Positions 1,873 to 37,855 of a stretch of DNA of 64,000 nucleotides are shown here, piece by piece. Where the stretch lies: positions 29,645 to 93,644 of the forward strand of contig CAAGAN010000038.1 in the NCBI GenBank assembly GCA_900767825.1, written 5' to 3'. The first letter of the stretch is position 1. Each line of letters opens with the position of its first letter. Made by a program: the position numbers and the translations under genes. Below the pieces are notes generated by a model. It did not search any database and was not told where the DNA came from. It saw nothing but the letters and a program-made list of their open reading frames with translations. The DNA comes from Bacilli bacterium. GTDB lineage: Bacteria; Bacillota_I; Bacilli_A; RFN20; CAG-826.

Positions 1873-1875
1873 TTT

Positions 1876-9386: not shown

Positions 9387-9400
9387 GAAACAAATTAGTT

Positions 9401-10429: not shown

Positions 10430-12616
10430 TTATTTTCTTTCAATCCACTTAATCTCGTGAGGGGCTAAGCTAAATTCAGTTTTATTCCCATCTATATCAA
10501 AGAATGTAGTCTTTCCTTCTTTATCTACGTTATTTAATAAAGAATATGAATTGCTAGAAGAATAATAATAACAATCAATATTTGGATTACTAGATAAAGC
10601 CTTTTGGTAACTATTCTCTTTTTTAGATGCCCAAAGAAGGCTCTTATATATAAGCCTAAAAGCTTCAAAAGAATCTAATAGACCAGAGATATATACTGCC
10701 CTGCCTTTATTATATGTATTGACTGAGAAATCAATATTCCCTCCTTGAAGGGTATTTTGGGTAGGATCATTTTCATTTATCGAGCAAGATAATATAGTCG
10801 CACCGATCGGATAAACCATTTCTCTAGAAGAAACAAATTTAACCTTAGACATATCTAAATCGGAAATAATCCAGTGATTAGAATCGATTTTATCAAATAC
10901 CTTATTCTTGCAATAGGTAAATCCTCTTTCTTTTTCTATTCCAAATATATCTCCTAGCTGGATATATTTGCCTTCGTAGAAATATCCGCTAGGACTACCA
11001 ATTCCAATTAATCCCCCGCCGTTATAGACATATTCCCTAATCTTGGTTAATAAGATTTCATTCTTCCAATAATAATCACCCTGGAAAGAAGAACCTTCTA
11101 GGCCTGTATTAACTAATACATCATATTTAGATATATCTATATTTCCGTTAATGATGTCATCAAAGGAAATAAATTCTACTTCAACAGGCTGTCCACATAT
11201 GGCATTAAAGAAAGTCCCATATCCTTTTGTTTCCATCTTTGTATCGTCAGTAAAATTGCCATTGAACATCCAGCTATTTTGTCTTCCCCAATAACTCATG
11301 ACTCCAACTTTAACAAAATTAAAGGAACCAGATTTATCTACATGCGACTTGATTAGACGGAATTCATCACATACTTGTTTGGCTAGCTTTTGGAAATTAG
11401 GATAAGAATCCACAAGCTTTAGATATCCACCAAATCCAATACGGTCGATGCATTTCTTTAATAATCCCCTTCTCTCGCTTAAATAATTCTTATTTAGATA
11501 GGCACATCCTAACTCATCACTAGGACATTCATTAGGAAAGAAATATGGATTTAATCTACCTTCGGTATATTTAATGCCTTTCATATCAGTTAATAAACGG
11601 ATATAAGGCCCGCTATGAGGGGCACCAACAACTGCATCTAGTCCAATAGAAGCAAAATAAGGATTATATGGTTCAACTCCAATTCGATGATCCCCATCAA
11701 ACATCATAGCTTTCTTGTTATATTTATGGACTATATCAACAAATAATTTAGCCCAGCCACAGCATTTCCTTTGGACCATATCGATATAACATCTAGTTTT
11801 CTTGCTAGGTATTTGATATCTAGATGCATATGTTCCTGAAGTAACTAAATCTTCTAGAGTTATTTCTTCTCCATATTCTTTTTTAAATTCATTAAACATC
11901 ATAGGAGATGCACTCATCGCATAGGTATGCCAATCCCAGATAGATTGATGTAAGCCATCTTTATAAACCATGAAGAAGTTATAGAAGAATGTAGTAAAAC
12001 GTACGACAGTGATGTCTGGATTAGATTTACACCACTGTTCCATTCTATCCAACATATGCTTTAAAGCTTCTGGATAGATTGGATCTATATCAATATCAAT
12101 AGGAACGTCTTCCCAATTATTTGAATGGTAATTATATATTTGGACTGGATCCCATAAGTTTTTAGCAAAGAAGCTAACCGTATATTCATGGAATAGGATA
12201 GCTTTATTTATCCTGACGATATTATTCCCGATATATTCATAATCATTAACTAGTTCCCCAGTCGTACGGTCAAATACCTGCATGTAATCCAATGCATCAA
12301 TATTTACTTCTAGTGATTTCTTGAAGATATTTTCTAATAAATCAATATCTAGGGTTTTTGAAGTCGCTAATTTCCTATCGGTAATTAAAGCAACGTTTTG
12401 AAGATATTCAGGATGGTTCTTCGCATATTCATGGTCTTCCCTAATTATGAAATAGGCTTTATATACTTCGCAGTCAAATAATTCTTTTGCATTCTTAGGA
12501 AGAGAAACTCCATCGCAATCCCTAACGGCATCAGCTCCCCATAGGTCAATATATTTTTTTGTCCCTTCGATAAAATTAGAATCGGTTGGAATTGTTACAA
12601 AGCCTTTATTTTTCAT
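10430..12616 (-). CDS. lnpA: GH112 1,3-beta-galactosyl-N-acetylhexosamine (lacto-N-biose/galacto-N-biose) phosphorylase
   Basis: Collinear with the Bifidobacterium LNBP as I remember it: LWGADAVRDCDG, VVRFTTFFY, MMFDGDHRIGVEPY, GLDAVVGAP, KYTEGRLNPYFFP, GFGGYL, ISFDDI, KGRAVYISGL, SSNPN. Confidence 0.9.
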   Translation of the reverse strand: MKNKGFVTIPTDSNFIEGTKKYIDLWGADAVRDCDGVSLPKNAKELFDCEVYKAYFIIREDHEYAKNHPEYLQNVALITDRKLATSKTLDIDLLENIFKKSLEVNIDALDYMQVFDRTTGELVNDYEYIGNNIVRINKAILFHEYTVSFFAKNLWDPVQIYNYHSNNWEDVPIDIDIDPIYPEALKHMLDRMEQWCKSNPDITVVRFTTFFYNFFMVYKDGLHQSIWDWHTYAMSASPMMFNEFKKEYGEEITLEDLVTSGTYASRYQIPSKKTRCYIDMVQRKCCGWAKLFVDIVHKYNKKAMMFDGDHRIGVEPYNPYFASIGLDAVVGAPHSGPYIRLLTDMKGIKYTEGRLNPYFFPNECPSDELGCAYLNKNYLSERRGLLKKCIDRIGFGGYLKLVDSYPNFQKLAKQVCDEFRLIKSHVDKSGSFNFVKVGVMSYWGRQNSWMFNGNFTDDTKMETKGYGTFFNAICGQPVEVEFISFDDIINGNIDISKYDVLVNTGLEGSSFQGDYYWKNEILLTKIREYVYNGGGLIGIGSPSGYFYEGKYIQLGDIFGIEKERGFTYCKNKVFDKIDSNHWIISDLDMSKVKFVSSREMVYPIGATILSCSINENDPTQNTLQGGNIDFSVNTYNKGRAVYISGLLDSFEAFRLIYKSLLWASKKENSYQKALSSNPNIDCYYYSSSNSYSLLNNVDKEGKTTFFDIDGNKTEFSLAPHEIKWIERK

Positions 12617-12982
12617 ATATTACTTAATCCTTTTTTTAAGTTTTTGAATCAAAGAACAATAGTTTATCTAAATTAAAGCAAATCTCTACTTCATTAATAG
12701 GAGAAACCTTGCTATCACTAGGAATCTTCATGATGATTTCTCGCTCATCAATTTAAAATAAACTGCAAGTTCAAATCCTAATAATTCTATAAAATCACAT
12801 GCCAATTTAAAAGACTCGCTCTTGTTTTTAATTGTTTGTTTTAGTTAAACATTTGTTTCTCGAAAATAAATCTCAAATAAAGATGCTAAATTATTTTTTA
12901 TGGCATTTTGTAATTGCTTTAACAATATATTCCTTTGATTTTGTATCATTACAATGATATAAATATTAATAGGAAAACCATT

Positions 12983-13681
12983 ATGGCTACAATCAAATTA
13001 TTTCATGGATCAAGCAATAAAATAGAAACCCCTAGTTATTTATTAGGAAAGCCCAATAACGACTATGGAAAAGGATTTTATTGCACCCAAGATATAGAAT
13101 TAGCCAAAGAATGGGCGTGTAAACAAAATTCGGATGGATATGTAAACGAATATAATCTAGATTTGGATGGATTAAAGATATTGGACCTATTAAATGGGGA
13201 ATATAATATCCTCAACTGGATTGCCTTATTGCTAAAATACCGCACGTTCACTATAGAAGATGAAATAGCACTTGATGCGAAAGAATACATATTAAAGCAT
13301 TATTTCATTGACCTACCTAATTATGATGTTGCCATAGGTTATAGGGCTGATGATTCTTATTTTTCCTTTGCTTATTCTTTTGTTAGCAATTCATTGCCAT
13401 TAAAAGGATTAACAAAGGCATTAGAATTAGGAAAATTGGGGACGCAATTTGCTTTAATATCAAAAAAAGCTTTTACTCAACTAAAATATATTTCTAGCGA
13501 GAAAGTTGATGGAAGAGCCTATTTTTGCAAGTTTTCATCTAGAGATAGCCTTGCTAGAGATACATATAAAAAGGTAATTAAAAAGCAAAAGTCCTATAAA
13601 GACGATATCTTCGTGATGGATATATTAAGACAGGAGATCAAAGAAGATGACCCCCGCATACAAAGAATGTTACATAAATGA
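12983..13681 (+). CDS. DUF3990-like protein with a PARP-like H-Y-E ADP-ribosyltransferase signature
   Basis: Start chosen at MATIKLFHGS (ATG 12983, AGGAAA RBS). LFHGSS, DYGKGFYCT and YVNEYNL parallel PARP1 LWHGSR, FGKGIYFA and LYNEYIVY. Confidence 0.7.
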   Translation: MATIKLFHGSSNKIETPSYLLGKPNNDYGKGFYCTQDIELAKEWACKQNSDGYVNEYNLDLDGLKILDLLNGEYNILNWIALLLKYRTFTIEDEIALDAKEYILKHYFIDLPNYDVAIGYRADDSYFSFAYSFVSNSLPLKGLTKALELGKLGTQFALISKKAFTQLKYISSEKVDGRAYFCKFSSRDSLARDTYKKVIKKQKSYKDDIFVMDILRQEIKEDDPRIQRMLHK

Positions 13682-13688
13682 TGCATCA

Positions 13689-14297
13689 ATGAATCTAGGG
13701 GCTGCTTTTGATTATGCATTAAATACATGGAAACTAGATATAGACTTTTTTCAATTTGCTTTCTCTTCTAGCCCTTTAATTGCTCAATTTGAAAGAGGCA
13801 ATCCTAGTGTAGTTTCTGGCAGAAGCGGGATTGAATTAGTTAGGGATATTATTTATGAAATAGATAAAAAAGCCAAATCCCCTGCCCCTTCTATTATTCT
13901 AAATAGGACTCCTGAGTATTGGGCTGGGTATTACCTAGCTAAATATCAATGGGCTTATTGCAGGCGTTTTAAAGACATATTATCTAGAATCAAATTAAGC
14001 GAAATAATATCTATGTATCCTTTATATCATGAAATGGATGTAACTAGATTCTATGAAGAAATGGAAAGACGCTATAAGGAAGCTAGTAAAGAAACTAGTT
14101 TAGCTAGGATCAGGAAGAGTTATTCATTATCCCAGTCAGAATTAGCAAAATTATCAAATGTAAATCTACGTTCGATTCAATTATATGAGCAAAGAGTAAA
14201 TGATATAGACAAGGCTGAAGCCCATACCTTATTCAAATTAGCAGTTGTTCTTAAATGTAATATAGAAGATTTATTAGAGAGTCCTGCATCTATATAA
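13689..14297 (+). CDS. Protein with a C-terminal XRE-type helix-turn-helix; partner of the DUF3990-like gene
   Basis: C-terminus SLSQSELAKLSNVNLRSIQLYEQRVNDIDKAEAHTLFKLAVVLKCNIEDLL is a classic HTH_3. The start is either ATG 13689 (7 nt after the upstream stop) or 13647 (overlapping). Confidence 0.7.
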   Translation: MNLGAAFDYALNTWKLDIDFFQFAFSSSPLIAQFERGNPSVVSGRSGIELVRDIIYEIDKKAKSPAPSIILNRTPEYWAGYYLAKYQWAYCRRFKDILSRIKLSEIISMYPLYHEMDVTRFYEEMERRYKEASKETSLARIRKSYSLSQSELAKLSNVNLRSIQLYEQRVNDIDKAEAHTLFKLAVVLKCNIEDLLESPASI

Positions 14298-14299
14298 GC

Positions 14300-15742
14300 C
14301 TAATTAAAAAGATCATTTAAGCAGATTAATTTAGAAAAGATGCCTGAGTATTCGTTCTTTTTTAAGCCGAATGTTGTTATCAACGTATTCTGAACAACAC
14401 TTTTTTTAGAAATCAATGATGTTACGTAGTTAACTCTGCTTAGTAATGTTTCGTAATACTTTTTATCAACAGAGAAAACATCTCCATAGTATTTTATTTC
14501 ACAGACATTGACTACATCATCTTTTCTTTCAATTATCAAATCAATTTGTTTGCCGTTTGTATTCTCATTGCCTTGGATATGAAGAACGGATTGATTAGTG
14601 GATACTCCACTTATGCCTAAAGCAGCCTTGATTTGTTTTATATGATTTAAGCAGACATTTTCAAAAGCAATCCCTCTCCAAGAAACGAATTTCTGTGAAT
14701 TGAAATTATCGGTATAGTAAGTTTCGTTTATGGAAGATTGTTCATTAACAATTTTTAAATAGAAAATAGAGAATGGATCAATTAATTTATAGCATTCATC
14801 TCTTTTCTTTCCTTTAAAAGGAACATATTTCATGACGAAATCGCTGCCGACTAAAGAAGACAATGCAGTATATAAAGATTCCCCATCGCTCATTGACAAT
14901 GCATCCATTATTTCGTTTTTAGTATATCCAACATCATTTTTAGCTAATAATTTAATGATAGCCATGGTTGTTTTTAAATTAGAAAAGTCCAAAGAAAGCA
15001 AATTATTGAATTCGCCTTTTAGCTTTGCATTAACTTTAAAGAACAAATTATCGATGTTTTCTATGAAAGTAAGATTACTAGAAAAGTAGTTAAGATAATA
15101 AGGTATTCCACCTACCATCATGTAAGCCTGTGCTATATCGTATATTGATATTTGAATTTTCTTTTCTTGGAATAATTCTTCGTATTCTTTTAGTGAAAAA
15201 GGCACTAGCTTAATTTGATAAGTAATTCTTCCATAAAGCCCGCCATGGTTATTAATTAATTTATTTAATATATAGGATGTCGCACTGCTACATACGATAA
15301 GCATTAAATTATTTCTAGCGCATCCCCAATTATTCCAAAATGATTCAAACGCTGTAATGAAGTCGGATTTAGGAGTATCTAGCCATGGAAATTCATCTAT
15401 GAAAACAACTTGTCTGGATCCAGAATCTTTTTCAATCAAAAACTTTTTCAGCAAGGCAAATGCTTCAAACCAATCTTCTGGTTTATCGCATTTTTCCATC
15501 CCCTGTTCAATAAGCGACTGATAGAAACTTTTTAGTTGTTTGTTCAAAAGACTTCTACCTTTCATATTTTTTAATTCAATAGGAGACAGCCCAGCATGCT
15601 TAAATGTAAATTTATCGGCAAAGGTTTGGTTTATTAAATACGTTTTGCCAACCCTTCTCCTGCCGTAAACTACTACAAATTGGGAATCATTTGATTCATA
15701 TAAATCCAATAGTTCATTTTGCTCAGCGTTTCTTCCAACCAT
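14300..15742 (-). CDS. ATP-binding protein, archaeal-type ATPase/DUF234 class, with a C-terminal PD-(D/E)xK-like motif
   Basis: Walker A YGRRRVGKTYLI and Walker B VVFIDEFPWL. The C-terminus has KQIDLIIER...VCEIKY. Confidence 0.85.
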   Translation of the reverse strand: MVGRNAEQNELLDLYESNDSQFVVVYGRRRVGKTYLINQTFADKFTFKHAGLSPIELKNMKGRSLLNKQLKSFYQSLIEQGMEKCDKPEDWFEAFALLKKFLIEKDSGSRQVVFIDEFPWLDTPKSDFITAFESFWNNWGCARNNLMLIVCSSATSYILNKLINNHGGLYGRITYQIKLVPFSLKEYEELFQEKKIQISIYDIAQAYMMVGGIPYYLNYFSSNLTFIENIDNLFFKVNAKLKGEFNNLLSLDFSNLKTTMAIIKLLAKNDVGYTKNEIMDALSMSDGESLYTALSSLVGSDFVMKYVPFKGKKRDECYKLIDPFSIFYLKIVNEQSSINETYYTDNFNSQKFVSWRGIAFENVCLNHIKQIKAALGISGVSTNQSVLHIQGNENTNGKQIDLIIERKDDVVNVCEIKYYGDVFSVDKKYYETLLSRVNYVTSLISKKSVVQNTLITTFGLKKNEYSGIFSKLICLNDLFN

Positions 15743-16033
15743 ATAATTACCAACTACGTATTGTTATTTTAAATAACCAAAGGTTTTTGATAAACAAAAA
15801 AAGTGTAGATAACGCGTGGAAAACATATATTTTTTAGTAGTTTTACCGGTCTTATCTACATGTTTTTCATATAAATAGAAGATTGATTTAGATAGATATC
15901 TATAAAAAAGTACCGATGAATACTGGCTTTTTAAATAAAATGTGGCGGAAATGTGAACTAGCCCATAAAAGACGAGAGAAAATAGCGAAAGCATAAGAAA
16001 ACTTTCACCTCACTACCTTAAATTGAAACTTCT

Positions 16034-16064
16034 GACTAATTCCGAATTGAATTCGGAATTAGTC
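16034..16064. terminator. 31-nt perfect palindrome between the two tandem ATPase genes
   Basis: GACTAATTCCGAATT-G-AATTCGGAATTAGTC lies 29 nt after the stop of 16093-17424. Only a weak T-run follows on the minus strand. Confidence 0.45.
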
Positions 16065-16092
16065 AATGACATGTTTAGTACATAGAAAAGTG

Positions 16093-17424
16093 TCAAATAA
16101 ACAAAACCATATAATGTGGAACGGTCTTCTTTACGCCGTCAATTCCAACATTCCCATTAATTAGTTTATAAGCGACTTTAGGAGAATAACTCTTAATAAA
16201 ATTATTCAAAGAAATTGAGGCTGCATTACCTGCCTTGACTTCGATTGGAAGTACCTCTCCATCTTTTTCTATCAAGAACTCTAATTCTTGGTTATCATCA
16301 GGTCTATAATAATGCAATTTATATCCTTTCTTAACCAAAAGTTCAGATACCACATTTTCATAAATTGCCCCTTTGGCGTTACCTTTTAGAGTATTATTTA
16401 GAATAGCAATCTTCGTTTCTCTTCCATACATTTCCGTTAGTAATCCAGTATCGTTGATATAGAGTTTGAATTGCTCTTCTATTTCATTTGCCATAAGGGG
16501 AATATATGGTTCTCTAACGTTATAGCAAGCATTTACAAGAGCAGAATCTTTTAACCATTTAATGCTTCCAGAAAACTTTCTGCTAGTCTGCCTAGTTTCT
16601 ACAACAGAATACTGGAACTTCTTGATTTCTCTTGCTAATTGTTTAGGAATGGAATCATAACATTGCCTTACCTTTATTTTTTGATCACCTTTAGCGTGAT
16701 TGGATATATCACCTTGGTAATCCGTAATAATCTTATCCTGAACTCTTATTGCTTCGTTGAAATTATTAGATTTTTCAAATGCATCAACAACTTCAGGCAT
16801 GCCTCCGACAACAATATATTCCCTAAATAATGATTCCATTTTTTCATTAATATCGCTTGGGACAGCAATGCCTTTATCAAAAAATGATTTTACGTATAAA
16901 AGTTGTTTATCTTCGTATCCTTTTGACCATAGATATTCTTCAAAATCCATTGGATACATTACCATGGCTGATTCATAACCAACAGGTATAGACTCGGGGA
17001 CTTCAACATTTTTTTCATCATCTTCCCCATATTCGAGTCCAAGTAAAGAACCTGATGCAATAAAGTCATAACGTAAATCAGATGCTAAGAATTTAATAGC
17101 AGTTCTTGCATCACCACAATTTTGTATTTCGTCTAAAAAGAAAAGGGTTCTACCTTCTAGAAGTTTCATTTTTGGAAAATATATAGATAAACGTTGATAA
17201 ATTGCTTCCGGGCTCTTATTGCCTCTAAAAGCATTTTTAAGTTCAGGCTGTTTTATAAAATTGATTTCTATAAAAGACTTATATTCCTTTTTTCCGAATT
17301 TCTCGACTAAATACGACTTGCCGACCTGCCTGGCCCCTTTTATAAGCAGGGCTTCTTTCAATGATTTATTGTGCTTAGTATTTTTCCAATCAAGTAATTG
17401 TTGATATGCCTTTCTCTTTAACAT
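16093..17424 (-). CDS. AAA ATPase (AAA_14 + DUF4143 type) with a C-terminal PD-(D/E)xK-like motif
   Basis: Real start is MLKRKAYQQLLDW at ATG 17424, preceded by AAAGGAGG. Walker A GARQVGKSYLV and Walker B LFFLDEIQ. The C-terminus has ELEFLIE...PIEVKAG. Confidence 0.85.
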   Translation of the reverse strand: MLKRKAYQQLLDWKNTKHNKSLKEALLIKGARQVGKSYLVEKFGKKEYKSFIEINFIKQPELKNAFRGNKSPEAIYQRLSIYFPKMKLLEGRTLFFLDEIQNCGDARTAIKFLASDLRYDFIASGSLLGLEYGEDDEKNVEVPESIPVGYESAMVMYPMDFEEYLWSKGYEDKQLLYVKSFFDKGIAVPSDINEKMESLFREYIVVGGMPEVVDAFEKSNNFNEAIRVQDKIITDYQGDISNHAKGDQKIKVRQCYDSIPKQLAREIKKFQYSVVETRQTSRKFSGSIKWLKDSALVNACYNVREPYIPLMANEIEEQFKLYINDTGLLTEMYGRETKIAILNNTLKGNAKGAIYENVVSELLVKKGYKLHYYRPDDNQELEFLIEKDGEVLPIEVKAGNAASISLNNFIKSYSPKVAYKLINGNVGIDGVKKTVPHYMVLFI

Positions 17425-17484
17425 TGATATTGCCTCCTTTTTAAGGAAATTGTATATAAAAATGAGCGATAAGTAAATATGACT

Positions 17485-17633
17485 TGCATCAAATCGGATA
17501 GTCAATTTATCGAAAAATGCATCAAATCGGATAGTCGAAACTTGAAAAAATGCATCAAATCGGATAGTCAATTTATCGAAAAATGCATCAAATCGGATGG
17601 TTAATTTGAGAAAATTTGCATCGAATGGGGACT
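17485..17633. repeat. Five phased direct repeats (17-nt core TGCATCAAATCGGATAG on plus) at an exact 33-bp period, upstream of the ATPase gene
   Basis: Cores start at 17485, 17518, 17551 and 17584, with a degenerate copy at 17617. Spacers 1 and 3 are identical, giving a 66-bp higher-order unit. Confidence 0.9.
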
Positions 17634-17741
17634 TACAATAAGTATGTGTTTTAGGTCCTGAAGACTTGCAAGAAATTTTGTGTTTGAGTAAATAGGATGT
17701 AATAACTGACAAGATAGATATATAGCAGTCACCAATACGCT

Positions 17742-18115: not shown

Positions 18116-20431
18116 TTATCTTTCTTTTTTCTTCTTACGCAATATAAGGCAAGTAGAGAAAGTAACGCTACCAATAGAGAATACAAGAAGGTGCGCTAAT
18201 AAAGATATATTGGTATCAATATTATTAATATATCTATCTATATTATTAGCATTAGTAGCATATACGCCTTCATTATAAGTTAATACCTTGCCTTCGCTTC
18301 TAGCCCATGCTTCTAATCTATTTCTAGCAGTAGATATTACATAATCACTAGATGAATTGAATAAATCCTTCTCTGTTGTGGATAGTGAATTAAGTTTATC
18401 TATTGCTATGCCTAATTTGGTCTTACATTGATTAGTCGTATCATTAATCATTATGTAGTTAGCTATATTAAGCGCAGATTCATTGCTACCATAAGTAACA
18501 ACAATTTCATCTAAATACATCGCACCACTATTAGAACGTAATCCAATGTATTTATATTTGCCTGTAATCGTTAATGATGTTGATGCCCCGTTAGTAATAG
18601 ACCCGAGTAAGGTACCACTAGGTGGATCGCTATATAAATCAATTGGACTTTTATAAGGGGCGTTAGAACCATAAATATCTAATTTCCTACCAGAAGCTGT
18701 TTTGGCATTCCATTTAACGGTTACGCTAGATAAATAAGAGGAACCATCATATTCAGTTGTAACAATACCGCTTGGGCTTTTCTCGCTCCTAAGTTGAATG
18801 ACATGCATATTCTTATTTCCGCCAGCACTATTCCCGGCATACTTAGCCCCTGAGCTATTTGTTTTAACCCAATCTGCATAAGTTGAATTAGTTACCCCAG
18901 TCCAAGCTCTATTCATTACATCATTAATAGAATTGGCTTCGACATATTTAGCTCTAGATACATTAACTACCAAATCAGTAACAAAAGAAGAATAACTAAC
19001 TGCATTCTTAAATGTCTTAGGTGTAACATCTCCGCCTTCAATCGCATCATCATAGGTAAACCGATAATTATTATTAACAAATCCAAAACTAGTAATGTCA
19101 TTACCTAAATCATCTTTAACATTAATATCATCTTTAGTAATGGTATCCCCTGGATGATATATCTTAGTAACATTAGCGGTTATACTAGTTGAACTAGAAT
19201 CAATTACATTAACATTGCATTCACCATATTTAGATGAATCAAAAGTAGATATAGCCTTAATAACGCAGCTACCTTTAGATTTAGCAGTTACTAATCCATT
19301 ATTATCAATAGATGCTACATTAGGATTGCTAGATATCCAACTAACTCCATTAGAAGCCCCATTAGATACATCTACAATAGCTTCTAAGATAGCAGTCATA
19401 TTGTTATTTAAATCTAATTGCAATGATGATGGATTGATAGTTACTTTATTAACTACAGGCGATGATGGATCTATAGGATTATCACCCCAGATTAAATTGG
19501 CATAATTGCTATTATCAATAAATGGATTCCTATTACCTTGATAAGTAGCAACTTTATCATTCCTTCTTCTTTCTATATCATCTACTGGATCAGATGAATT
19601 CCATCTTAATAACATCTTTAGTGCATCTTCTTCGGTATTATTAGCGGTTATATTAGTTAACGGTAGTAATGTAGATGAAAAATATGATGAGCTACCATTA
19701 TTCCCATTAGTAGAAGCATATCCATCAAATAATGAACTAACTGAATATGAATTGTAATGTAAATATAGATATAGGACTATTCTAGCTACATCACCTTTCT
19801 TGTTATCTAGGGGTTCAAAGGTTCCACCAGATACATATCCACCTAATGCATAAGTTAGATCATTGCCAAACTTAGCATATGTCTTATGTGAATCCCTATT
19901 AGGTACCTCGCCGAAAGGATTGTTGCCCCTAGTGCTATTTAGTCTTGTTTCAGATGGCCTAATATGGTGCATATCGGCTCCACCGCCAGTCGTACCCCAT
20001 AATCCAGTACTTTTGGACTGACACCAAACATGTTCCCTATTGTAGCCACCGCTAGTATTGCCAGCATTTGAATTCCATCCATCAGGCCACTTAACCCCTG
20101 AATAGAATTCATAGATATATCCATTTGCTGGTGAACCATTTTCATAATATCTATCAGTTTCTTTTTGATAACCATTTTTGCCATTATCATCATAGATAGT
20201 ATATGTTCTATGAGTAGACGTAATTAAATCGTGTAATTGGCCTGCTAAAGGTTTACCACTTGTAGCGGTTATATTCTGATAATAACTAGATGCATCAGTA
20301 GAATAATTACCTACCGCTGCATATGTAGGAGCTACATCATTATTAATATTGGAATTAATAGAAATACCAATTCCAATAGATAATGATGCTCCTAGTAAGG
20401 ATAATAATAATTTTGACTTAATTCTTTTCAT
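18116..20431 (-). CDS. Membrane-anchored extracellular endonuclease I family nuclease with a Big_2 domain
   Basis: N-terminal signal peptide. Endonuclease_1 motifs YNREHVWCQS, DMHHIRPSETRLNSTRGNNPFG and YQGNRNPFIDN. Big_2 motif VSWISSNPNVASIDNNGLVTAKSKGSC. C-terminal TM helix followed by RKKKKER. Confidence 0.85.
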   Translation of the reverse strand: MKRIKSKLLLSLLGASLSIGIGISINSNINNDVAPTYAAVGNYSTDASSYYQNITATSGKPLAGQLHDLITSTHRTYTIYDDNGKNGYQKETDRYYENGSPANGYIYEFYSGVKWPDGWNSNAGNTSGGYNREHVWCQSKSTGLWGTTGGGADMHHIRPSETRLNSTRGNNPFGEVPNRDSHKTYAKFGNDLTYALGGYVSGGTFEPLDNKKGDVARIVLYLYLHYNSYSVSSLFDGYASTNGNNGSSSYFSSTLLPLTNITANNTEEDALKMLLRWNSSDPVDDIERRRNDKVATYQGNRNPFIDNSNYANLIWGDNPIDPSSPVVNKVTINPSSLQLDLNNNMTAILEAIVDVSNGASNGVSWISSNPNVASIDNNGLVTAKSKGSCVIKAISTFDSSKYGECNVNVIDSSSTSITANVTKIYHPGDTITKDDINVKDDLGNDITSFGFVNNNYRFTYDDAIEGGDVTPKTFKNAVSYSSFVTDLVVNVSRAKYVEANSINDVMNRAWTGVTNSTYADWVKTNSSGAKYAGNSAGGNKNMHVIQLRSEKSPSGIVTTEYDGSSYLSSVTVKWNAKTASGRKLDIYGSNAPYKSPIDLYSDPPSGTLLGSITNGASTSLTITGKYKYIGLRSNSGAMYLDEIVVTYGSNESALNIANYIMINDTTNQCKTKLGIAIDKLNSLSTTEKDLFNSSSDYVISTARNRLEAWARSEGKVLTYNEGVYATNANNIDRYINNIDTNISLLAHLLVFSIGSVTFSTCLILRKKKKER

Positions 20432-20564: not shown

Positions 20565-22142
20565 TTAGTTTTGTTCTTTACGTTTTCTGATAAAGAAGAA
20601 TGAACCAATAGCAGCAGCACTAGCACAGGCAATTAGAGAAATTACCATAATGTTGTTAGTGGTATTAGCCTTGAATAATTGATTGGCTAAGCTAGCGGTA
20701 ACACCTCTACCAATGAAGTCATTGATTTCGGTATGAATAGCACTATAACGTTTTACGATATGATCATATCTAGCCATGGCCTTTTCTAAATCAGTTCCGG
20801 CATTGTTAGCAACTGCCTCTTTGACAAGCTTCTTAGCACCATCAGACAATGCATTAAATTCAGTCTTTAATGTAGCCCAAGCAGTCTTTAATGCTTCGCT
20901 ATTGTCTTTAGTTCCATCGGCGCAGGCATCAACTGTGTTATTTAAGAATGAGGTTCCAAATGCTAATGCATCTGTGGTAGAAGTATCAACAAAGTCTACG
21001 TAAGTAACAGTTATAGACACAATTCTTCTATGTCCGCTTGTGCCACCAACACTAAATGTAACATCTTGAGCATTCCCAAGCCAAGTTGGGGAATTAAATT
21101 TTCCCTTGTCAGTTGTAATTACATTAGCATCTTCACCCTTTTCAAAAGCAAGGGTAATAGAAGCCAATCTTTTTGAGGTGTCGTTTAAGATTATTTTAAA
21201 TGTATTCCCGCCATAAACACGGACGGCCGCTCCGGTGTCATAGTAAACTGGGGAGTACTTTTCATTAGTACCTTTATTAAAAATAACCTTAGTGGTTGAA
21301 TTAATATCGGCTTCCGATATCTTTTGACTATCGCTATAGCCTTTCTCGGAAAAAACAATACTATGCGGTTCTATCAAACCGCTCCAAGTAACGTTTATAG
21401 AGTTAGAAATTTGATTGCCGTCGCTAGCAAGAGCAACCGATGTTGCAGTAATAACGGCCTGCCCACTTGCGGTTTTTAAAGTCAAAAGTCCTTCTTTGGA
21501 AACAGCGGCGTTCTCATTACTGGAAGACCAAAAAACTCTACTGTCTGTCTGAGTGCTTTCGTTATACGCAACGACAGCGGACAGTTGTTTAGTATATCCT
21601 ATTTTGTCTTCAGTAACTTTTAATTCAGAAGGGTTAATAGTTACGCTCTTCGCAGTAAGAACAACGGTGGACTCCATCTCGTACGAAAAGGTATTCAATT
21701 GCAATTGCCCCTTTCCTCCGAGTGTAAATACAACCGATTTAGAAGAACCGGTCCAAACGCCTTCACCATCGCTGGATGGATGAGCATAATTGGTAACATT
21801 TGAAGTTACGGAAGCAAAAACTTTGCTTCCCTGCTTTTCCCAATTAAAAACTATTTTTGAAATGTTAGAATCGCTTTTAGAAGCTATAGTAACAGTGTTT
21901 TTGGCGTACAAGCGCAAACCTTCTTCATACCACTTAGGGGCGTTAGATCCGCTGCCTTTTGCAAAAGTAGCTGTAATTGTCCCATCATCTATCTTTGCTT
22001 CACTAGTTACAGTAACTACTTTTGAAGCTGCCTCTACTCTAGCAATCTCACTATGAGTATTACTAGTAATTCCAATTCCGACACCTAGGCTCAAGGCCAG
22101 TCCTAAGGTCCATCCAATTAGTCGTTTCTTGATGTTTTTCAT
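20565..22142 (-). CDS. Surface protein with a Big_2 domain, a duplicated uncharacterised beta-rich module and a C-terminal TM anchor; paralogous in parts to the nuclease
   Basis: The signal peptide LGLALSLGVGIGITSN resembles that of 18116-20431. Big_2 motif VFWSSSNENAAVSKEGLLTLKTASGQAVITATS. The C-terminus has a TM helix followed by RKRKEQN. Confidence 0.7.
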   Translation of the reverse strand: MKNIKKRLIGWTLGLALSLGVGIGITSNTHSEIARVEAASKVVTVTSEAKIDDGTITATFAKGSGSNAPKWYEEGLRLYAKNTVTIASKSDSNISKIVFNWEKQGSKVFASVTSNVTNYAHPSSDGEGVWTGSSKSVVFTLGGKGQLQLNTFSYEMESTVVLTAKSVTINPSELKVTEDKIGYTKQLSAVVAYNESTQTDSRVFWSSSNENAAVSKEGLLTLKTASGQAVITATSVALASDGNQISNSINVTWSGLIEPHSIVFSEKGYSDSQKISEADINSTTKVIFNKGTNEKYSPVYYDTGAAVRVYGGNTFKIILNDTSKRLASITLAFEKGEDANVITTDKGKFNSPTWLGNAQDVTFSVGGTSGHRRIVSITVTYVDFVDTSTTDALAFGTSFLNNTVDACADGTKDNSEALKTAWATLKTEFNALSDGAKKLVKEAVANNAGTDLEKAMARYDHIVKRYSAIHTEINDFIGRGVTASLANQLFKANTTNNIMVISLIACASAAAIGSFFFIRKRKEQN

Positions 22143-22391
22143 GAGTCTCCTTTTCTACCCCTTTTATGTAATAAATAGGTAAATCAGTCTTAATAGACAA
22201 CCTATTTTGATATATAAATATATATATTTCAATACTCTATATACTTAAAATGCGTGATAATCGATTCTTTTTATTTGAATTATTACAAAATAACCAACTT
22301 TGATTTACATTCTAGATAGATGAGTAATCATTTTTAGCATTGTGTATATTAGGTTTTTTCTATGCTTTAATAGGAGTAAATCATTTATTTA

Positions 22392-25300
22392 TCAACTGTT
22401 CAACTTTTCGAATTTAGACATTGATTCAATACCTTCTTTTAACTCACTTATTTTATCTTCCACCAATTGCCTATGATCTATAAAAGAAATATCGTCAGGA
22501 ATTATTTTTAATAAGCTTTCACAATAAGACATCTTAGAGTTTAATACTGAAACGGCTCCATCATTTAATACTTCGAGAGATGGGAATTCGAGAAAATCTT
22601 TAAATAGATCTTTTGATACACCGATACTAATTAATTTCTTAGCATATTCAATCTTTGTTCCATGGCCAAGCCCACGAACGAGATTATTTAAGCATTTAAT
22701 AGAATCATTATCTTTATGCGAATTAAGATAGGAACTAAGCCATGTCGATTGTTCAGCAGTCAACTCCATTCCTCCTTGTGCAGAATAAAAGCCGAACATT
22801 AAAGTTTCATTATTAAAACGATTTGGAGTCATTCTAAAACGCATGAAATCTAACATTAAATTTCCGATGGAAATATATTCATTGCATTTCCAAATTGATT
22901 TCATTCTTTCAGCACTTTCATATGACATTTGTCCACAAAGCAATAATCCTAAAACCACTGCGGAGAACTTTATGTCCCTATCAACAATCAGTTTAAGATA
23001 ATTTCCCTCGTAGTCGAAACTATAATTACCGTTTTTTAAACTCAAACAATACAGTTTTTCAAGCAAGGAAATATTTTCTGAAAGCAAATAATTAAACATG
23101 CCTTTGTTTTCATCAATCAGCGAGCAAAAAACGCTTTGATATCGCCCGTTTTCGGGCTGTTCCGATATCTCGAAATACTTTTTTAAAAACAAATGTATCT
23201 TATCAAAAGGAATCTTGCCATGTAAAAAATAGTTAATATCAAAATCTTTAGGTAACGCTACTTTTATATCTTCGAGATATCGGTCGAAAATGGTCATTGC
23301 TGATGGCCTATCAAACTCAAAAGCTTTCTCGAAAAAATAAGTGATAAACTTTTCTTTGAATCCACCTCTTGTGCCATTAATAATTTTTGAATATGCATCA
23401 TTAGCGCCCACTTCTTCAATGACTCTATCTATAAGAAGGTAATTGTAACCGACAACTTTGTCTGTGACGTTGGTAAAAGCCAAAAACGAGTCAATCTTAT
23501 TGTACATTTCTTTTTCGGGGAACGTAGAGAACCACATCTTAACAAATTTGATAATCGATTCGTTAAATGACGATGAGAATTTAATTATTTCGTTAAACAA
23601 TTCCAGTCGCTTAAAGTTAGTATCGAACGACGATTTTTTAGTTTCTTCTAAAACTAATTCGTCTCTTTTTCTTTCCTTCTCGTAATAATCACCTTTAAAC
23701 CGATAATTGCTCTTTTCTATAATAGGCAAAATAAGATTCAATTTGTCTTTCAGACTTTCTTCCATAAATTCACAGCGAAGTTTAAAGAAATCCAGTGTAT
23801 TTTTTAAATCGAGGTAAATTGCGAGTTCATGGTTCATGTCCCTATCGCTTTTTTCTTGCAATTTTGTTCCAATCGTCTTTAAGTCCTGCTCAAATATTCC
23901 AACATTCTCTTTGTTTGGGCTCCAAGAGAAATATGAATCAAGCGAACCGTAAGCATCACTGCATTCAAAGAGCACATCAAAACATTTTTTACGCAGTGTG
24001 GAAAGATTTTCGTCTCCAGGCCTAACGGTCATTATATTATAGTCGGGACTATTGCCTATGCTTTCAACATATGGAATATCAAATTTAAGCATCTCCAAAC
24101 AATATTTCTTAAGAAATTCTATTGAACATTCTTCTTTTTTATTAAGGAAATATGAAAGTATAAAAATCTGAGCATTATATTTGTGGTAGCATGATTTCCT
24201 CGATATTCCATTTCGCTGAACAAGAATATAGGTTATGCTCTGACTATCGATTAGTTTTGAACAAATCATTTTCTCAATAATTTGGCAACACGTTTTTGGC
24301 CTGACATTTAGAAGGGACGAGATTGCAGAAAGTCTCCAATCTACATTTCCATTTGTTACGCCTGACCACGAGTCTTCCTTTTCATCAGTGTGGTCTCGTA
24401 AAAACTGCAACGAATTAGCCTCATTTGCCAAAGCAAATTTCGCGCAGAACAATTTCAAATTTTTAACGTTTCCTTTTTCAACTAAGTCATTCCACGAACG
24501 CTTAACTTCTTCAGTTATATAATCCATTCCCTCTTTGGAATTAAACATGCTTCCAAACATATTTATCATTACGACAACGTTGTCGTAATATTTTTCAGAG
24601 AAAACATCCATAAACGAAGAGAGACTTAACAATCTCTTCTCCAAAAAAACATAATAAGAAAGATAATCAGCTAGACACTGGTCAGAAATTTCGACCACAC
24701 CATCCTTAAATAACGAAACTATATCGTTATCATAAAGATAATTTATTGCTTTCTTAAAATCTTCTTTGGATACATTGGTAAATTTAAGAATTGGATCCTC
24801 ATCTTTAAGATCTTCAATTGATAGTTTCTTTAAAAGACATACAATTCCAATAACTTTCAGCAATTCGTCGCTTTTATCGTTCCATTCCTTAATTCTTTTT
24901 ATCCTGTCACAATAGTAATTTGCAAAAACCTTTGTAACGTTAAATAAAGTAGAAGGCCCATTTTTAATTGATCCTTCCGCAGCCATAAAAGCTATACGTG
25001 GATTCCCCTTTGCCACTTGAACAATTTTCCTTAAATACTCAATGTTGGTAATCCCGAGATTACTTTTAACTATTGATTCAATGCTTTCATCAGAAAGAAT
25101 ATCTATGGCTGATATTTTATATTGCAGCTCTGCGCTTCTTAATTCGTCTTCCAAATCATCCATTAAATAATTTCTAGACGTTACAATTACATTCTTGCCT
25201 TTCAGGATTTGAATAACATCCGGGACGCTATTCCCAAAAGAGCTTAAATCATCGACTACAAAATGGTCACATCCAACGGTTGATTCCCTAATTTCTTCAA

Positions 25301-26036
25301 GGTTTGGATTTCCGACGGCCTTAATAACAAGCCACTTCTCCCCAATTTTTGTTTTAGCTTTAGCGTATTCTAGTGCAAGCATCGTTTTCCCAACGCCTGC
25401 GTTTCCAGTTAAAACAACAAATTGATTTTCTTTAAACGAACCCTCGACTGATTTAATTTCTGATTCTCTGAAATCAAACTTTTTATCTAATGATGGTGAA
25501 AGTGATTTTTTTGTTTCATTAATAAACTCGTCAATCTCAAACACGCATTTAGAAAAAGGCACTGGAATCCCTAAAAAATCCGATGCTAAACTTTGAAATC
25601 TATTACATATATCAGATGCAATATCTTCTAGCCCATACGCATTAAAATTGATATTTTTCTCTTTTAGTTCAGTGGTTATCTTAAAGTATATGGAATTATT
25701 AATTGCTCTTCCCATGTGACAAAAGGCTATTTCTTCTATCGCGCCCATATCTATTCCTGCTTTGCTTTCATCAATGCAGGCCTCGACATCTGATTTAATC
25801 TTTTTCTTTAAATTTTTACTTTGTGTCGTGCACTCGACCAAAATAAAAGATGAAGAATCCTTCTTTTTTAGCAAAAAATCAGGGTGTCCTTTCGTTGTTT
25901 TGTTGCTTCCTAACGATCCACCATTTGCCTGAACCAAATAATCAGGATGCTTCTTTTTGAATAGTTCAACACATAGTTTTTGAAACATGCCACCTTCTAA
26001 GGTAAGCAATCTCTGCTCAATAGTATTAATATTCAT
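22392..26036 (-). CDS. Stand-alone STAND (NB-ARC-like) NTPase with an N-terminal restriction-endonuclease-like domain and a roughly 800-aa helical C-terminal region (Avs/bacterial-NLR-like)
   Basis: N-terminus GHPDFLL...FILVECTTQSK. Walker A VLTGNAGVGKTMLA and Walker B HFVVDDL. NVIVTSRN is TTR/RNBS-B-like and KGNPRIAFMA is GxP-like. The long C-terminal region has no motif I recognise. Confidence 0.7.
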   Translation of the reverse strand: MNINTIEQRLLTLEGGMFQKLCVELFKKKHPDYLVQANGGSLGSNKTTKGHPDFLLKKKDSSSFILVECTTQSKNLKKKIKSDVEACIDESKAGIDMGAIEEIAFCHMGRAINNSIYFKITTELKEKNINFNAYGLEDIASDICNRFQSLASDFLGIPVPFSKCVFEIDEFINETKKSLSPSLDKKFDFRESEIKSVEGSFKENQFVVLTGNAGVGKTMLALEYAKAKTKIGEKWLVIKAVGNPNLEEIRESTVGCDHFVVDDLSSFGNSVPDVIQILKGKNVIVTSRNYLMDDLEDELRSAELQYKISAIDILSDESIESIVKSNLGITNIEYLRKIVQVAKGNPRIAFMAAEGSIKNGPSTLFNVTKVFANYYCDRIKRIKEWNDKSDELLKVIGIVCLLKKLSIEDLKDEDPILKFTNVSKEDFKKAINYLYDNDIVSLFKDGVVEISDQCLADYLSYYVFLEKRLLSLSSFMDVFSEKYYDNVVVMINMFGSMFNSKEGMDYITEEVKRSWNDLVEKGNVKNLKLFCAKFALANEANSLQFLRDHTDEKEDSWSGVTNGNVDWRLSAISSLLNVRPKTCCQIIEKMICSKLIDSQSITYILVQRNGISRKSCYHKYNAQIFILSYFLNKKEECSIEFLKKYCLEMLKFDIPYVESIGNSPDYNIMTVRPGDENLSTLRKKCFDVLFECSDAYGSLDSYFSWSPNKENVGIFEQDLKTIGTKLQEKSDRDMNHELAIYLDLKNTLDFFKLRCEFMEESLKDKLNLILPIIEKSNYRFKGDYYEKERKRDELVLEETKKSSFDTNFKRLELFNEIIKFSSSFNESIIKFVKMWFSTFPEKEMYNKIDSFLAFTNVTDKVVGYNYLLIDRVIEEVGANDAYSKIINGTRGGFKEKFITYFFEKAFEFDRPSAMTIFDRYLEDIKVALPKDFDINYFLHGKIPFDKIHLFLKKYFEISEQPENGRYQSVFCSLIDENKGMFNYLLSENISLLEKLYCLSLKNGNYSFDYEGNYLKLIVDRDIKFSAVVLGLLLCGQMSYESAERMKSIWKCNEYISIGNLMLDFMRFRMTPNRFNNETLMFGFYSAQGGMELTAEQSTWLSSYLNSHKDNDSIKCLNNLVRGLGHGTKIEYAKKLISIGVSKDLFKDFLEFPSLEVLNDGAVSVLNSKMSYCESLLKIIPDDISFIDHRQLVEDKISELKEGIESMSKFEKLNS

Positions 26037-26182
26037 TCAAATCGTCCTTTCTAGATTGATTTTCATCTTTCCGATTATGACTTAAAAATATCTTTATGGT
26101 GTTCCCCTTAAATTTCTACCATTATTATCTCACTATTTATAACTACAAAGAATGATTTGTTGATGCCCCTAAATACAAAATA

Positions 26183-26224
26183 AACCCCCACTACTAATCA
26201 TGATAATGATGTTCATGGGGGTTA
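26183..26224 (-). terminator. Intrinsic terminator after gpmA
   Basis: The minus strand has an AACCCCCA...TGGGGGTT stem (8 bp, large loop) followed by TATTTTGTATTT. Confidence 0.55.
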
Positions 26225-26254
26225 TATATAAATGAATAATATTTAGCTAATTGA

Positions 26255-27205: not shown

Positions 27206-28246
27206 TTATTTACGGTAATACATTGCGTCTTTATACGAACCAATTTTAATAATTTTTTCTTCTTTAAGTAGTTTAGACAAAACCATTTCAATTAATTGCT
27301 CGCTGATATCCGGAAGATGATCTTGAATCCCTTTTTTTGAAATTGGTACAAAAACATTTAGCAAAAGAGTCTCGATTCTTTCGGACTTTGATAATTTCTT
27401 GTCGATTTGAGAAAATACATTTTCATCTAATTTCATATAACATTCATAAAGGATTCGAATCATATAAAGCATGAATGGTTCATAGTTGTTTTTATTGTTT
27501 TGCCATTCAATAGATGATTCTTGAAGGGTTCGATAATATTCACCTTTGTTTTCATTTATCATATTCTCAATTGAAATAAACCTTCCAATATCGAAACCAC
27601 GTTTATATAAAAGCAATAAAGTCAGAAGTCTAGACATTCTTCCGTTTCCGTCATCAAATGGGTGAACGCAAAGAAAATCTAAAATAAAACATGGTATTAA
27701 TAGCAACGGATTAATATTTGCGTTATGGCTTGCTTCGTTAAAAGCAATCAACATTTGGTCAATTGATTCTTCGACTTCTTTTGGGGCGGTAGGAACAAAA
27801 ACAACATATTTTTTTCCATCCCTTGTTTCAGCAATAATATTAGGTTCTTTTTTAAACCGGCCTCTATTCTCACTTTCTGCAACATCTAATAATTGTTTAT
27901 GTAGCGATAAGATAGTCGTTTTATCAAAAATAATTCTTTCGTTAAAGGTGTGAATGTTGTTAAGAACATTTCTATAGCCGATAATTTCTTTTTCAGGATG
28001 TGTAAAGGCGGTGTTATCGCCGGCAGCAATTTCATCAATACGTTTTTCAGTAGTATGGATATTCTCGATGGCATTACTACCTTTGATAGAATCCCTAACG
28101 GCTTTTTCTTTTAACTTTTTGAATAATTTTGGATTGTCTTTTAAACGAACGCTTTCTTTGCCTTTGATATCATAAATAATAGCGGTCAAATTTAGTAATC
28201 TAGCAGGTACTTGGTTTTCTAAAAATGAATAATCGAATTTTCTCAT
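27206..28246 (-). CDS. Fic family protein (AMPylase-type)
   Basis: Canonical Fic motif HPFDDGNGRMSRLL, with an N-terminal Fic_N-like region. Confidence 0.9.
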   Translation of the reverse strand: MRKFDYSFLENQVPARLLNLTAIIYDIKGKESVRLKDNPKLFKKLKEKAVRDSIKGSNAIENIHTTEKRIDEIAAGDNTAFTHPEKEIIGYRNVLNNIHTFNERIIFDKTTILSLHKQLLDVAESENRGRFKKEPNIIAETRDGKKYVVFVPTAPKEVEESIDQMLIAFNEASHNANINPLLLIPCFILDFLCVHPFDDGNGRMSRLLTLLLLYKRGFDIGRFISIENMINENKGEYYRTLQESSIEWQNNKNNYEPFMLYMIRILYECYMKLDENVFSQIDKKLSKSERIETLLLNVFVPISKKGIQDHLPDISEQLIEMVLSKLLKEEKIIKIGSYKDAMYYRK

Positions 28247-37216: not shown

Positions 37217-37219
37217 AAA

Positions 37220-37855
37220 TTATCTATATCTAGCTATTTTTGAAAGACCTAAATATACCTTTCTACTATTATAGTAGGCAGCTAAATGTATTAACGTTTC
37301 AAAATTTAAGTTATTTTTGCTAATTTCTTTTCTTAATATCTCTATATAGTTATTTGCTTCTATCTCTATATTCATCTTGTTATCAAGAATATCTAAAAGC
37401 TGTAGATATCTATAATTATCCTTATCTATTGGAATAACTGGCTTGATAAACCTTATCTTATCTTCTTCGTCCAGGATTGAATATCTAACTTTATTAGTAG
37501 CAACATAGGTCAAACTAGGAATTTGGGTAGTAAGACCGATTTTATTCATATAAGATGGCCCAGATTCATAACCGAACACTTCTTCTTTATGAGACAAATA
37601 TAATCTTTTAATAAGAAGAGTTTTATCTATCTTGCTTAATCCAAATGGGGTAAGAGCCGTCCTATAATAAATACCTTTTTGGTAACGAATAAAGGCATCG
37701 TTAGACTTTTCATAACGTTGCAAAGTCATGTTAAAAGTAGGCTTCTCTATTTTAGTTAACTTGCTTTTTACAAATTCATATATGTCGTTACTAAAAATAG
37801 GAACACCTGCTTCAATGTTCTTAATAAATTCATCAATGCATTTATTAAGGTTCAT
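37220..37855 (-). CDS. AbiEi-like / DUF6088-type antitoxin-transcriptional regulator
   Basis: It ends 3 nt before the AbiEii start, and its size and the QKGIYYR motif are typical of AbiEi-type partners. Confidence 0.65.
   Translation of the reverse strand: MNLNKCIDEFIKNIEAGVPIFSNDIYEFVKSKLTKIEKPTFNMTLQRYEKSNDAFIRYQKGIYYRTALTPFGLSKIDKTLLIKRLYLSHKEEVFGYESGPSYMNKIGLTTQIPSLTYVATNKVRYSILDEEDKIRFIKPVIPIDKDNYRYLQLLDILDNKMNIEIEANNYIEILRKEISKNNLNFETLIHLAAYYNSRKVYLGLSKIARYR

Follow-up and report, generated by a model that had tools for sequence, protein, structure and literature searches.

The gene at 22392..26036 of the 64,000-nt window analyzed here (Bacilli bacterium, GenBank assembly GCA_900767825.1, contig CAAGAN010000038.1, positions 29,645 to 93,644) probably codes for an antiviral STAND ATPase of the Avs or bacterial NLR kind that acts as a single protein. 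Its product has three parts in the broad layout of Avs proteins: a head with a restriction endonuclease (REase) fold (residues 1–165), a nucleoside triphosphatase (NTPase) module that carries the STAND motifs (residues 186–470), and a fast-diverging solenoid of 745 amino acids (aa). The gene lies in a defense-island context. An earlier reading of the bare sequence (the original prediction) had proposed a nuclease-STAND-sensor protein of this kind, and architecture, fold, and context support it. By analogy with characterized Avs proteins, we infer that the protein acts against phages, that it senses a protein of the phage, that it oligomerizes, and that it is a DNase.

An nSTAND3-Type STAND NTPase Forms the Central Module

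The open reading frame (ORF) is a single long one, with an ATG start and 1214 codons before the stop; full-length homologs have 1200–1260 aa. Its translation contains every motif quoted in the original prediction: GHPDFLL (residues 50–56), FILVECTTQSK (64–74), LTGNAGVGKTMLA (209–221), HFVVDDL (258–264), NVIVTSRN (282–289), and KGNPRIAFMA (343–352).

The Pfam nSTAND3 profile matches residues 200–300 with 27.0 bits (E = 4e-6). Matches to NB-ARC (E = 0.4) and NACHT (E = 0.17, residues 206–222) cover the P-loop only. When 24 family members were scanned singly against the Pfam and PADLOC profiles, nSTAND3 (PF20720) was matched by 23 (best 1.1e-11), nSTAND5 (PF25199) by 18, NB-ARC by 11 (best 3.2e-7), and NACHT by seven (best 1.3e-5). 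A Bacillus cereus plasmid homolog scores above the cutoff for both nSTAND3 (36.4 bits) and NB-ARC (29.2 bits), and in the Bacillus homolog the NB-ARC profile reaches residues 244–367, covering the counterpart of the helical domain. We assign the NTPase to the STAND/nSTAND3 type because these homolog scans settle the borderline score of the window protein. The STAND-clade match on which the original prediction depended was therefore found, and its "NB-ARC-type" NTPase is a STAND domain with all the motifs, although of the nSTAND3 type. The NTPase is not of the NACHT clade that characterizes bNACHT proteins; NACHT matches are fewer and weaker than those to nSTAND3. The nSTAND3 and nSTAND5 entries, the best profile matches, differ from the present protein in covering the NTPase alone, without head or sensor.

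A P-loop, STAND-specific motifs, and a STAND-clade profile match are all present. Among the 24 sequences, G211, G214, G216, and K217 of Walker A (G211-N-A-G-V-G-K217-T) are invariant, as are D262 and D263 of Walker B (V-V-D262-D263), R190 of the upstream motif F-D-F-R190-E-S-E, and T286 and R288 of sensor-1 (T286-S-R288). In the GxP-type motif G344-N-P-R-I-A349, G344 and A349 are invariant and N345 and R347 are found in at least 90%; the proline varies (P/A/V/I). A winged-helix domain may follow, as suggested by its position, by a weak CvfB_WH match (residues 406–447, E = 0.0019), and by the conserved ISD452-Q453-C motif that closes residues 396–470 (D452 invariant, Q453 in at least 90%).

NCBIfam and PADLOC scans of the window protein returned nothing useful. 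Matches to KaiC, ATPase_2, and AAA_x were dismissed as a generic likeness among P-loop proteins; nSTAND3 gives the stronger matches throughout the family. PADLOC mad8 (1e-6 in 8 of the 24 members) and VakA were dismissed as generic NTPase similarity, because they are insignificant for the window protein (VakA covers residues 204–229 only) and neither is an Avs model. Sequence matches in the PDB, whether obtained with the protein, the full-length profile, or the N-terminal profile, were at the P-loop level (UvrA, DnaB, ADR1) or noise.

The N-Terminal Head Has a REase Fold and a Non-canonical Set of Conserved Residues

The head was modeled with AlphaFold on the family alignment, and its fold was compared with the PDB by Foldseek. 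The model of residues ∼1–165 has a predicted local distance difference test score (pLDDT) of 84.5 and a predicted template-modeling score (pTM) of 0.82. Helix 15–29 is followed by strands 33–37, 54–58, and 64–70, helix 76–88, strand 100–107, helix 114–125, and strand 130–134, so the α-β-β-β-α-β core required of the PD-(D/E)xK fold is present. The top matches are mainly PD-(D/E)xK nucleases (BstEII, Avs4, EcoT38I, Can2, FokI, BspD6I, XPF, and Hachiman HamA). The nuclease domain of Avs4 (PDB 8DGF) ranks second and seventh, with a probability of 1.0 and a TMq of 0.48–0.52. The REase fold is supported by the consistency of these matches, with no single strong score. Residues 1–185 gave no sequence-level match in Pfam or the PDB, for the window protein or its relatives. 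The expectation of a nuclease-like fold at the N terminus is supported; the predicted size, ∼100 aa, was too small, as the model gives ∼165 aa.

Conservation was assessed over 196 distinct family N termini. P52-D53, the "PD" motif, is found in 195 of them (99.5%) and is invariant in a smaller set (33/33). G39, K79, and D83 are present in 100%, and K46 and Q19 are 97% conserved. Strand 3 of the window protein has E68-C-T70 where the canonical (D/E)xK is expected. Position 68 is Glu in 116 sequences (59%), Met in 40 (20%), and Ala in 19 (10%); at position 70, 157 sequences have Thr, 36 have Gly, and none has Lys. None of these 196 N termini thus carries D…(D/E)-x-K, the signature that catalysis by strands 2 and 3 would require. 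With 59% Glu and no Lys, the glutamate of the "VEC" motif is a poor catalytic candidate, and D53, K79, and D83 are better ones. The PD-(D/E)xK reading therefore stands as to the fold and the invariant PD, but not as to the "VEC" glutamate, which is variable, or the lysine of ExK, which is missing.

The catalytic residues of FokI, D450/D467/K469, form a canonical D…DxK. FokI, BspD6I, and BstEII are the closest solved folds to the head, from which they differ in sequence (11–17% identity); in the head the second acid varies among family members and the Lys is missing. The conservation of D53, K79, D83, K46, and Q19 argues for a catalytic over a purely structural domain. If the head is an enzyme, D53 and, from the helix after strand 3, K79 and D83 would be the likeliest components of its active site.

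The C-Terminal Region Is a Fast-Diverging Solenoid

The remaining residues (471–1214) were predicted by AlphaFold as an α-solenoid (pLDDT 87.2, pTM 0.70). DSSP strands 184–191 and 194–201 of this C-terminal model form a β-hairpin. Foldseek matches in the PDB are generic HEAT/ARM/TPR proteins (CAP-G/Ycg1, importins, CRM1, Ctr9, and FANCI-D2) with template-modeling (TM) scores of 0.13–0.32. The viral structure library BFVD gave generic HEAT/ARM/TPR/ankyrin proteins only and no informative viral protein. The original prediction of an unrecognizable 800-aa region is accurate in that no specific relative was found; the region is, however, ∼745 aa long and a HEAT/TPR-like solenoid. A match to HEPN_LA2681 (residues 944–1001, E = 0.013; 1e-4 in one homolog) was rejected, because the sole Rx4-6H of the protein lies at residues 613–618 and is unconserved.

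Between the two main clades of the family, the solenoid has ∼16% identity, against 28–30% for the head, NTPase, and winged-helix regions; it diverges about twice as fast as the rest of the protein. A shorter evolutionary distance is provided by the related strain L015, which has the STAND gene at the corresponding site, with gpmA on one side and a surface-protein gene on the other. Rates of synonymous change (dS) between the two strains are alike among the compared genes (0.17–0.21). Amino acid identity and the ratio of nonsynonymous to synonymous rates (dN/dS) are 100% and 0.011 for gpmA, 99.1% and 0.03 for the DUF4011 helicase, 96.9% and 0.078 for PNP_UDP, and 89.5% and 0.23 for the STAND gene, a pattern that, on this comparison of alleles, is one of accelerated protein evolution. 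Within the sensor, residues 801–950 form a hotspot (78% identity, dN 0.114, dN/dS 0.27).

Homologs Form a Large, Patchily Distributed Family

Word-indexed searches yielded 36 full-length relatives, a great undercount compared with an exhaustive search. The latter used a 164-position N-terminal profile against representatives clustered at 50% identity and returned 1321 representatives at E ≤ 1e-3, 585 of them at E ≤ 1e-30. Among the matches listed, the domain lies at or near the N terminus in 150/150, and 100 of the 143 newly found proteins have at least 1150 aa (median 1243); shorter ones resemble fragments. The head appears bound to one architecture of ∼1240 aa, since the listed matches all place it at or near the N terminus and most are of similar length. 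Profile searches of the word-indexed database added one distant protein (P0037) and fragments, and a search with the NTPase alone found no outgroup that would place the family among the named Avs clades. A phage-encoded origin was rejected, as there is no homolog among 50,697 phage records.

Members occur patchily in Firmicutes, Mollicutes-like taxa, and Leptospira plasmids. They include proteins of Clostridioides difficile (a single sequence, present on 95 contigs), of Sporolactobacillus and Desulfosporosinus, of a Clostridiales metagenome-assembled genome (MAG) and an Anaeroplasmataceae MAG, and of plasmids: a megaplasmid of B. cereus and 13 plasmids of Leptospira. Entries for members are UPI00093B94BA (C. 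difficile), WP_274401137.1 (Sporolactobacillus), WP_407306364.1 (Desulfosporosinus), WP_139849294.1 (B. cereus), and WP_017857409.1 (Leptospira). The annotations of these proteins read "hypothetical," "ATP-binding protein," or "nSTAND3 domain-containing NTPase." A profile scan of species-representative genomes found one locus only, in an uncultured Anaeroplasmataceae MAG. This homolog (L009, 9986–13634) is split into two overlapping ORFs, 9986–13066 and 13014–13634, which from the sequence would be either a frameshift, a pseudogene, or an assembly error. On Leptospira interrogans plasmid pLiSL2 (L019), the family member (8992–12720) is followed at 12872–16666 by a 1264-aa P-loop protein without Pfam match, whose NTPase region aligns weakly, with 28% identity over 202 aa (GLSGVGKTRLV / GGNARIAIALA). 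The pair may be a tandem of different STAND-like proteins.

Most Sampled Homologs Lie among Defense Genes or Mobile Elements

Of 10 distinct contexts sampled, about eight have defense genes within 10 kb or mobile elements, in agreement with the expectation that homologs would be found in defense islands; the sample is small, and the count carries no formal statistic. The adjoining genes are of the restriction-modification (R-M), Abi, Gabija/OLD-like, GmrSD, and Wadjet kinds. One homolog stands directly after a type I R-M system with an embedded AbiJ; another follows a type I R-M system with Nmad2/Nmad3 and precedes dynamin-like GTPases, IS110, and a reverse transcriptase; yet another comes after a type I R-M system with a resolvase. 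Of the other locations, one has two C5-methyltransferases and a serine recombinase nearby, and one, on an element that carries an integrase, has a type II R-M system with RES on one side and FRG/GmrSD/JetD on the other. A further homolog stands beside smpB, with IS110 and AAA_15 / OLD-TOPRIM genes, and the Bacillus megaplasmid homolog stands between an SLFN-like helicase and Mrr + AAA_21 genes. No conserved partner gene, including a methyltransferase or other self-protection gene, was present across the sampled contexts. Because the immediate neighbors differ every time and no partner is conserved, we regard the gene as a single-gene system.

In the window itself, PADLOC identified SoFic (1.2 kb upstream of the STAND gene), a PDC-S37/Hhe-like gene, AbiEi/AbiEii, two PDC-S01, and PDC-S27. 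Judged by gene content, the window is a loose defense island, interleaved with housekeeping genes.

The Gene Is Probably Transcribed on Its Own

Spacers of 218 bp upstream (26037–26254) and 249 bp downstream (22143–22391) separate the gene from its neighbors, and their lengths had been given correctly in the original prediction. The upstream spacer contains the intrinsic terminator of gpmA, a hairpin with a 9-bp G+C-rich stem and a nested inner hairpin (−17.9 kcal/mol, z = −2.36). Direct reading of the spacer places the U-tract UUUAUUUUGUAUUU after it. A consensus promoter/terminator scan was set aside, being no better than shuffles; it overlooked the gpmA terminator because the hairpin loop is longer than 8 nt. 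No terminator was found downstream of the STAND gene. The gpmA terminator and a Shine-Dalgarno sequence near the ATG make independent transcription plausible, and the gene is probably transcribed on its own, which fits the stand-alone (monocistronic) gene proposed originally.

The excess of CG-containing codons noted by eye also holds. Such codons make up 3.8% of the STAND gene, and its observed/expected CpG ratio is 1.15, against 0.44 in gpmA, 0.62–0.87 in the surface-protein genes, and 0.75 in the whole window. Only the nearby Fic gene is comparable, with the highest ratio of the region (1.40).

Relationship to Known Avs Proteins

Avs4 combines an Mrr-like nuclease, a STAND NTPase, and a TPR sensor that recognizes the phage portal protein. 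SeAvs4 and the protein studied here are alike in being single polypeptides with the order nuclease, STAND NTPase, and helical-repeat sensor, and both occur in defense islands; the head has the N-terminal nuclease of Avs4 among its best structural matches. They differ in length (∼1540 aa in Avs4, 1214 aa here) and in the catalytic motif, which is non-canonical in the present family, and no PADLOC Avs or PDB sequence match links them. Avs5, which acts against jumbo phages, consists of SIR2, nSTAND3, and a repeat sensor. It shares with our protein the nSTAND3 NTPase, the tripartite single-gene layout, and the helical-repeat sensor. The effectors differ, SIR2 there and a REase fold here, and Pfam scans gave no SIR2 match.

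The NTPase of Avs5 has been described as nSTAND3 (bioRxiv 10.1101/2025.07.08.663546), and REase-STAND-repeat is an established defense design (PMC13581612, PMC8195603). A survey of prokaryotic STAND proteins (Lee et al., Nature 2026, PMC13581612) gives 589 clades, 684 sensor structural clusters, and Avs7–24; the families that it names and tests (Avs7, 8, 10–24) are for the most part those of Proteobacteria, Enterobacteriaceae among them. The present family is probably one of the clades in the survey, because its NCBI members (C. difficile, Bacillus, Leptospira, and Sporolactobacillus) are within PSI-BLAST reach. The literature texts searched contained no published trigger or phenotype for a recognizably similar protein.

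Proposed Mechanism

At rest, by analogy with Avs3/Avs4, the solenoid would keep the protein inactive, nucleotide bound, and monomeric. During infection it would bind a ligand that comes from the phage, most probably one of the conserved phage proteins, and ligand binding would free the nSTAND3-type NTPase / helical / winged-helix module to bind ATP and oligomerize. FokI-type cleavage domains cut only when dimerized, and oligomerization would gather the REase-fold heads in a similar way. The activated heads would then degrade DNA non-specifically and so abort the infection. DNase activity is the least certain of these steps, because the canonical (D/E)xK is unconserved and the site would need D53, K79, and D83.

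Several observations weigh against the assignment to the Avs kind. The window protein falls 0.2 bits under the nSTAND3 gathering cutoff (27.2). The Foldseek E-values of the head are marginal, ∼1e-3, with TM scores of 0.35–0.52. The canonical catalytic Glu is missing in 41% of members and the Lys in all, so that DNase activity is not assured. The original prediction had suggested comparing the C-terminal region with Avs sensors, and no solved Avs sensor, including that of Avs4, was retrieved in the top 50 PDB matches of the solenoid. PADLOC-DB v2 gave no Avs/AVAST match for the window protein (E ≤ 1) or the 24 relatives (E ≤ 0.01), and the profile scans place the protein outside Avs types 1–5 as modeled in that database. 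Two of the sampled contexts have few or no recognizable defense genes, and the immediate neighbors in the window are housekeeping or surface-protein genes. The dN/dS of the STAND gene does not reach 1 and hence does not demonstrate positive selection.

Three other explanations were weighed. The protein could be a defense STAND whose REase-fold head is no DNase and instead binds or senses nucleic acid, serves oligomer assembly or recruitment, or acts as an RNase or other hydrolase, with an output unlike that of Avs3/Avs4. The E-C-T of strand 3, in which Glu is conserved in only 59% of the 196 N termini and Lys in none, would be explained in this way, as would the lack of a Pfam nuclease or PDB sequence match and the marginal E-values of the structural similarity. 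Nonetheless, we think this unlikely. Q19, K46, D53, K79, and D83 are 97%–100% conserved despite ∼30% identity, as is typical of an active site; the PD is at its canonical position in the model; and the domain is always N-terminal among the matches listed, where Avs effectors sit. Relocation of catalytic residues into an adjacent helix also has a precedent, in restriction enzymes of the Cfr10I/NgoMIV group.

We consider it improbable that the protein detects nucleic acid instead of a phage protein and acts as an NTP-dependent, restriction-like enzyme, with the solenoid clamping DNA or RNA and the NTPase licensing the nuclease on foreign DNA. The structural neighbors of the solenoid that would suggest this, the DNA-binding HEAT proteins CAP-G/Ycg1-Brn1 and FANCI-D2, belong to a generic set of matches (TM 0.13–0.32) in which importins score equally well. 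The gene often stands directly beside R-M systems and its head resembles type IIS cleavage domains, but it has no conserved adjacent methyltransferase or self-protection gene, and Avs proteins with helical-repeat sensors mostly recognize phage proteins (PMC13581612). A STAND protein with no part in defense, such as a signaling or transcription-type regulator like MalT/AfsR that happens to lie in variable genomic regions, is a very remote prospect. Pfam scans found neither a helix-turn-helix nor any other output domain that binds DNA, the head is folded like a nuclease, and most sampled contexts are defense islands, plasmids, and integrative elements, with a patchy distribution. In favor of such a role, gpmA and surface-protein genes border the gene, the related strain retains it at this locus, and its dN/dS is below 1; defense and non-defense clades are moreover interspersed in the STAND phylogeny (PMC13581612).

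The antiviral STAND ATPase set out above may also be narrowed to a more specific proposal, which we put forward tentatively and with some doubt: that the proteins make up a distinct Avs family, found in low-GC Gram-positives and on Leptospira plasmids, that combines a rearranged REase active site (D53, K79, and D83) with a solenoid recognizing a phage component outside the Avs1–5, 7, 8, 10–21 repertoire.

Other Genes of the Window

The features of the STAND gene and of the surrounding genes are collected in Table 1. Strain L015, although syntenic elsewhere, lacks the SoFic-like Fic gene apart from a remnant of 28 aa; this looks like strain-variable insertion or deletion of a defense gene. No other Zorya or Dpd components were seen in the window beside the SNF2 helicase, and no tRNA or tmRNA integration site is present in the window.

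Two membrane-anchored surface proteins are encoded on the minus strand downstream of the STAND gene. The first (20565–22142, 525 aa, without Pfam match) is 45% identical to its positional counterpart in L015 and, given that gpmA is 100% identical there, is hypervariable. The second (18116–20431, 771 aa) contains Endonuclease_1 and Big_2 and, from these domains, is probably an extracellular nuclease.

Table 1. Positions of Features in the Window
Feature	Position	Strand	Basis
Complete ORF, single-gene effector-STAND-sensor protein	22392..26036	-	ORF list, translation, full-length homologs
REase-fold (PD-(D/E)xK-like) domain, residues 1–165, putative effector	25542..26036	-	AlphaFold model, Foldseek
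P52-D53, "PD" motif, start of strand 2 (54–58)	25878..25883	-	Conservation, model
K79…D83, invariant pair in helix after strand 3, candidate relocated catalytic residues	25788..25802	-	Conservation
STAND nucleotide-binding domain, residues 186–300	25137..25481	-	Pfam nSTAND3, conserved motifs
Helical (ARC1/HD1-like) domain, residues 301–395, boundary inferred	24852..25136	-	GxP-type motif, NB-ARC extent in homolog
Putative winged-helix domain, residues 396–470, assigned by position	24627..24851	-	Weak CvfB_WH, D452-Q453
α-Solenoid, residues 471–1214, ∼40 helices, putative sensor	22395..24626	-	AlphaFold, Foldseek, divergence
Single β-hairpin inserted in solenoid, residues 653–670	24027..24080	-	DSSP strands of model
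Most divergent sensor segment, residues 801–950	23187..23636	-	Comparison with L015 allele
Shine-Dalgarno AAAGGA, 9 nt before ATG	26045..26050	-	Read from sequence
Intrinsic terminator of upstream gpmA, hairpin 26183–26223 plus U-tract	26171..26223	-	Sequence reading, fold
SoFic-like Fic gene, between gpmA and methyltransferase	27206–28246	-	PADLOC SoFic 3.5e-35
DUF4011 / Upf1-like helicase (AAA_11/AAA_12) with MTES_1575 REase domain, 1931 aa	30384–36179	-	PDC-S37 8.9e-290, Hhe 2.3e-133
AbiEii (4.8e-114) + AbiEi (1.7e-40), toxin-antitoxin / abortive-infection pair	36272–37855	-	PADLOC
Three candidate defense ATPases: two PDC-S01 (AAA_14 + DUF4143), one PDC-S27 (ATPase_2)	6264–7499, 14300–15742, 16093–17712	-	Very strong PADLOC scores
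SWIM zinc-finger protein, then 1038-aa SNF2 helicase (SNF2_assoc)	370–4992	+	∼1e-110 vs PADLOC ZorD, DpdE
DUF4417 protein	8458–9189	-	Same variable region as DUF3990 protein
DUF3990 protein	12935–13681	+	Same variable region as DUF4417 protein

Significance

On the best-supported interpretation, the protein would act in the manner of Avs4; its NTPase is of the type found in Avs5. This confirms the earlier interpretation. Antiviral STAND/NLR-like proteins comprise at least 90 families, and nearly all characterized examples are Proteobacterial and were tested in E. coli. The conceptual gain is incremental, because the general design principle is already established. What the present work adds is a large family with a rigid architecture, found in C. 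difficile, B. cereus, and plasmids of pathogenic Leptospira, that escapes detection by PADLOC v2. Its invariant, non-canonical D/K/D set lends itself to a clean test of how plastic the active site of the PD-(D/E)xK fold is. Identification of the trigger would carry the map of bacterial NLR sensing into the phages of Firmicutes and spirochaetes and would be relevant to phage therapy of C. difficile.

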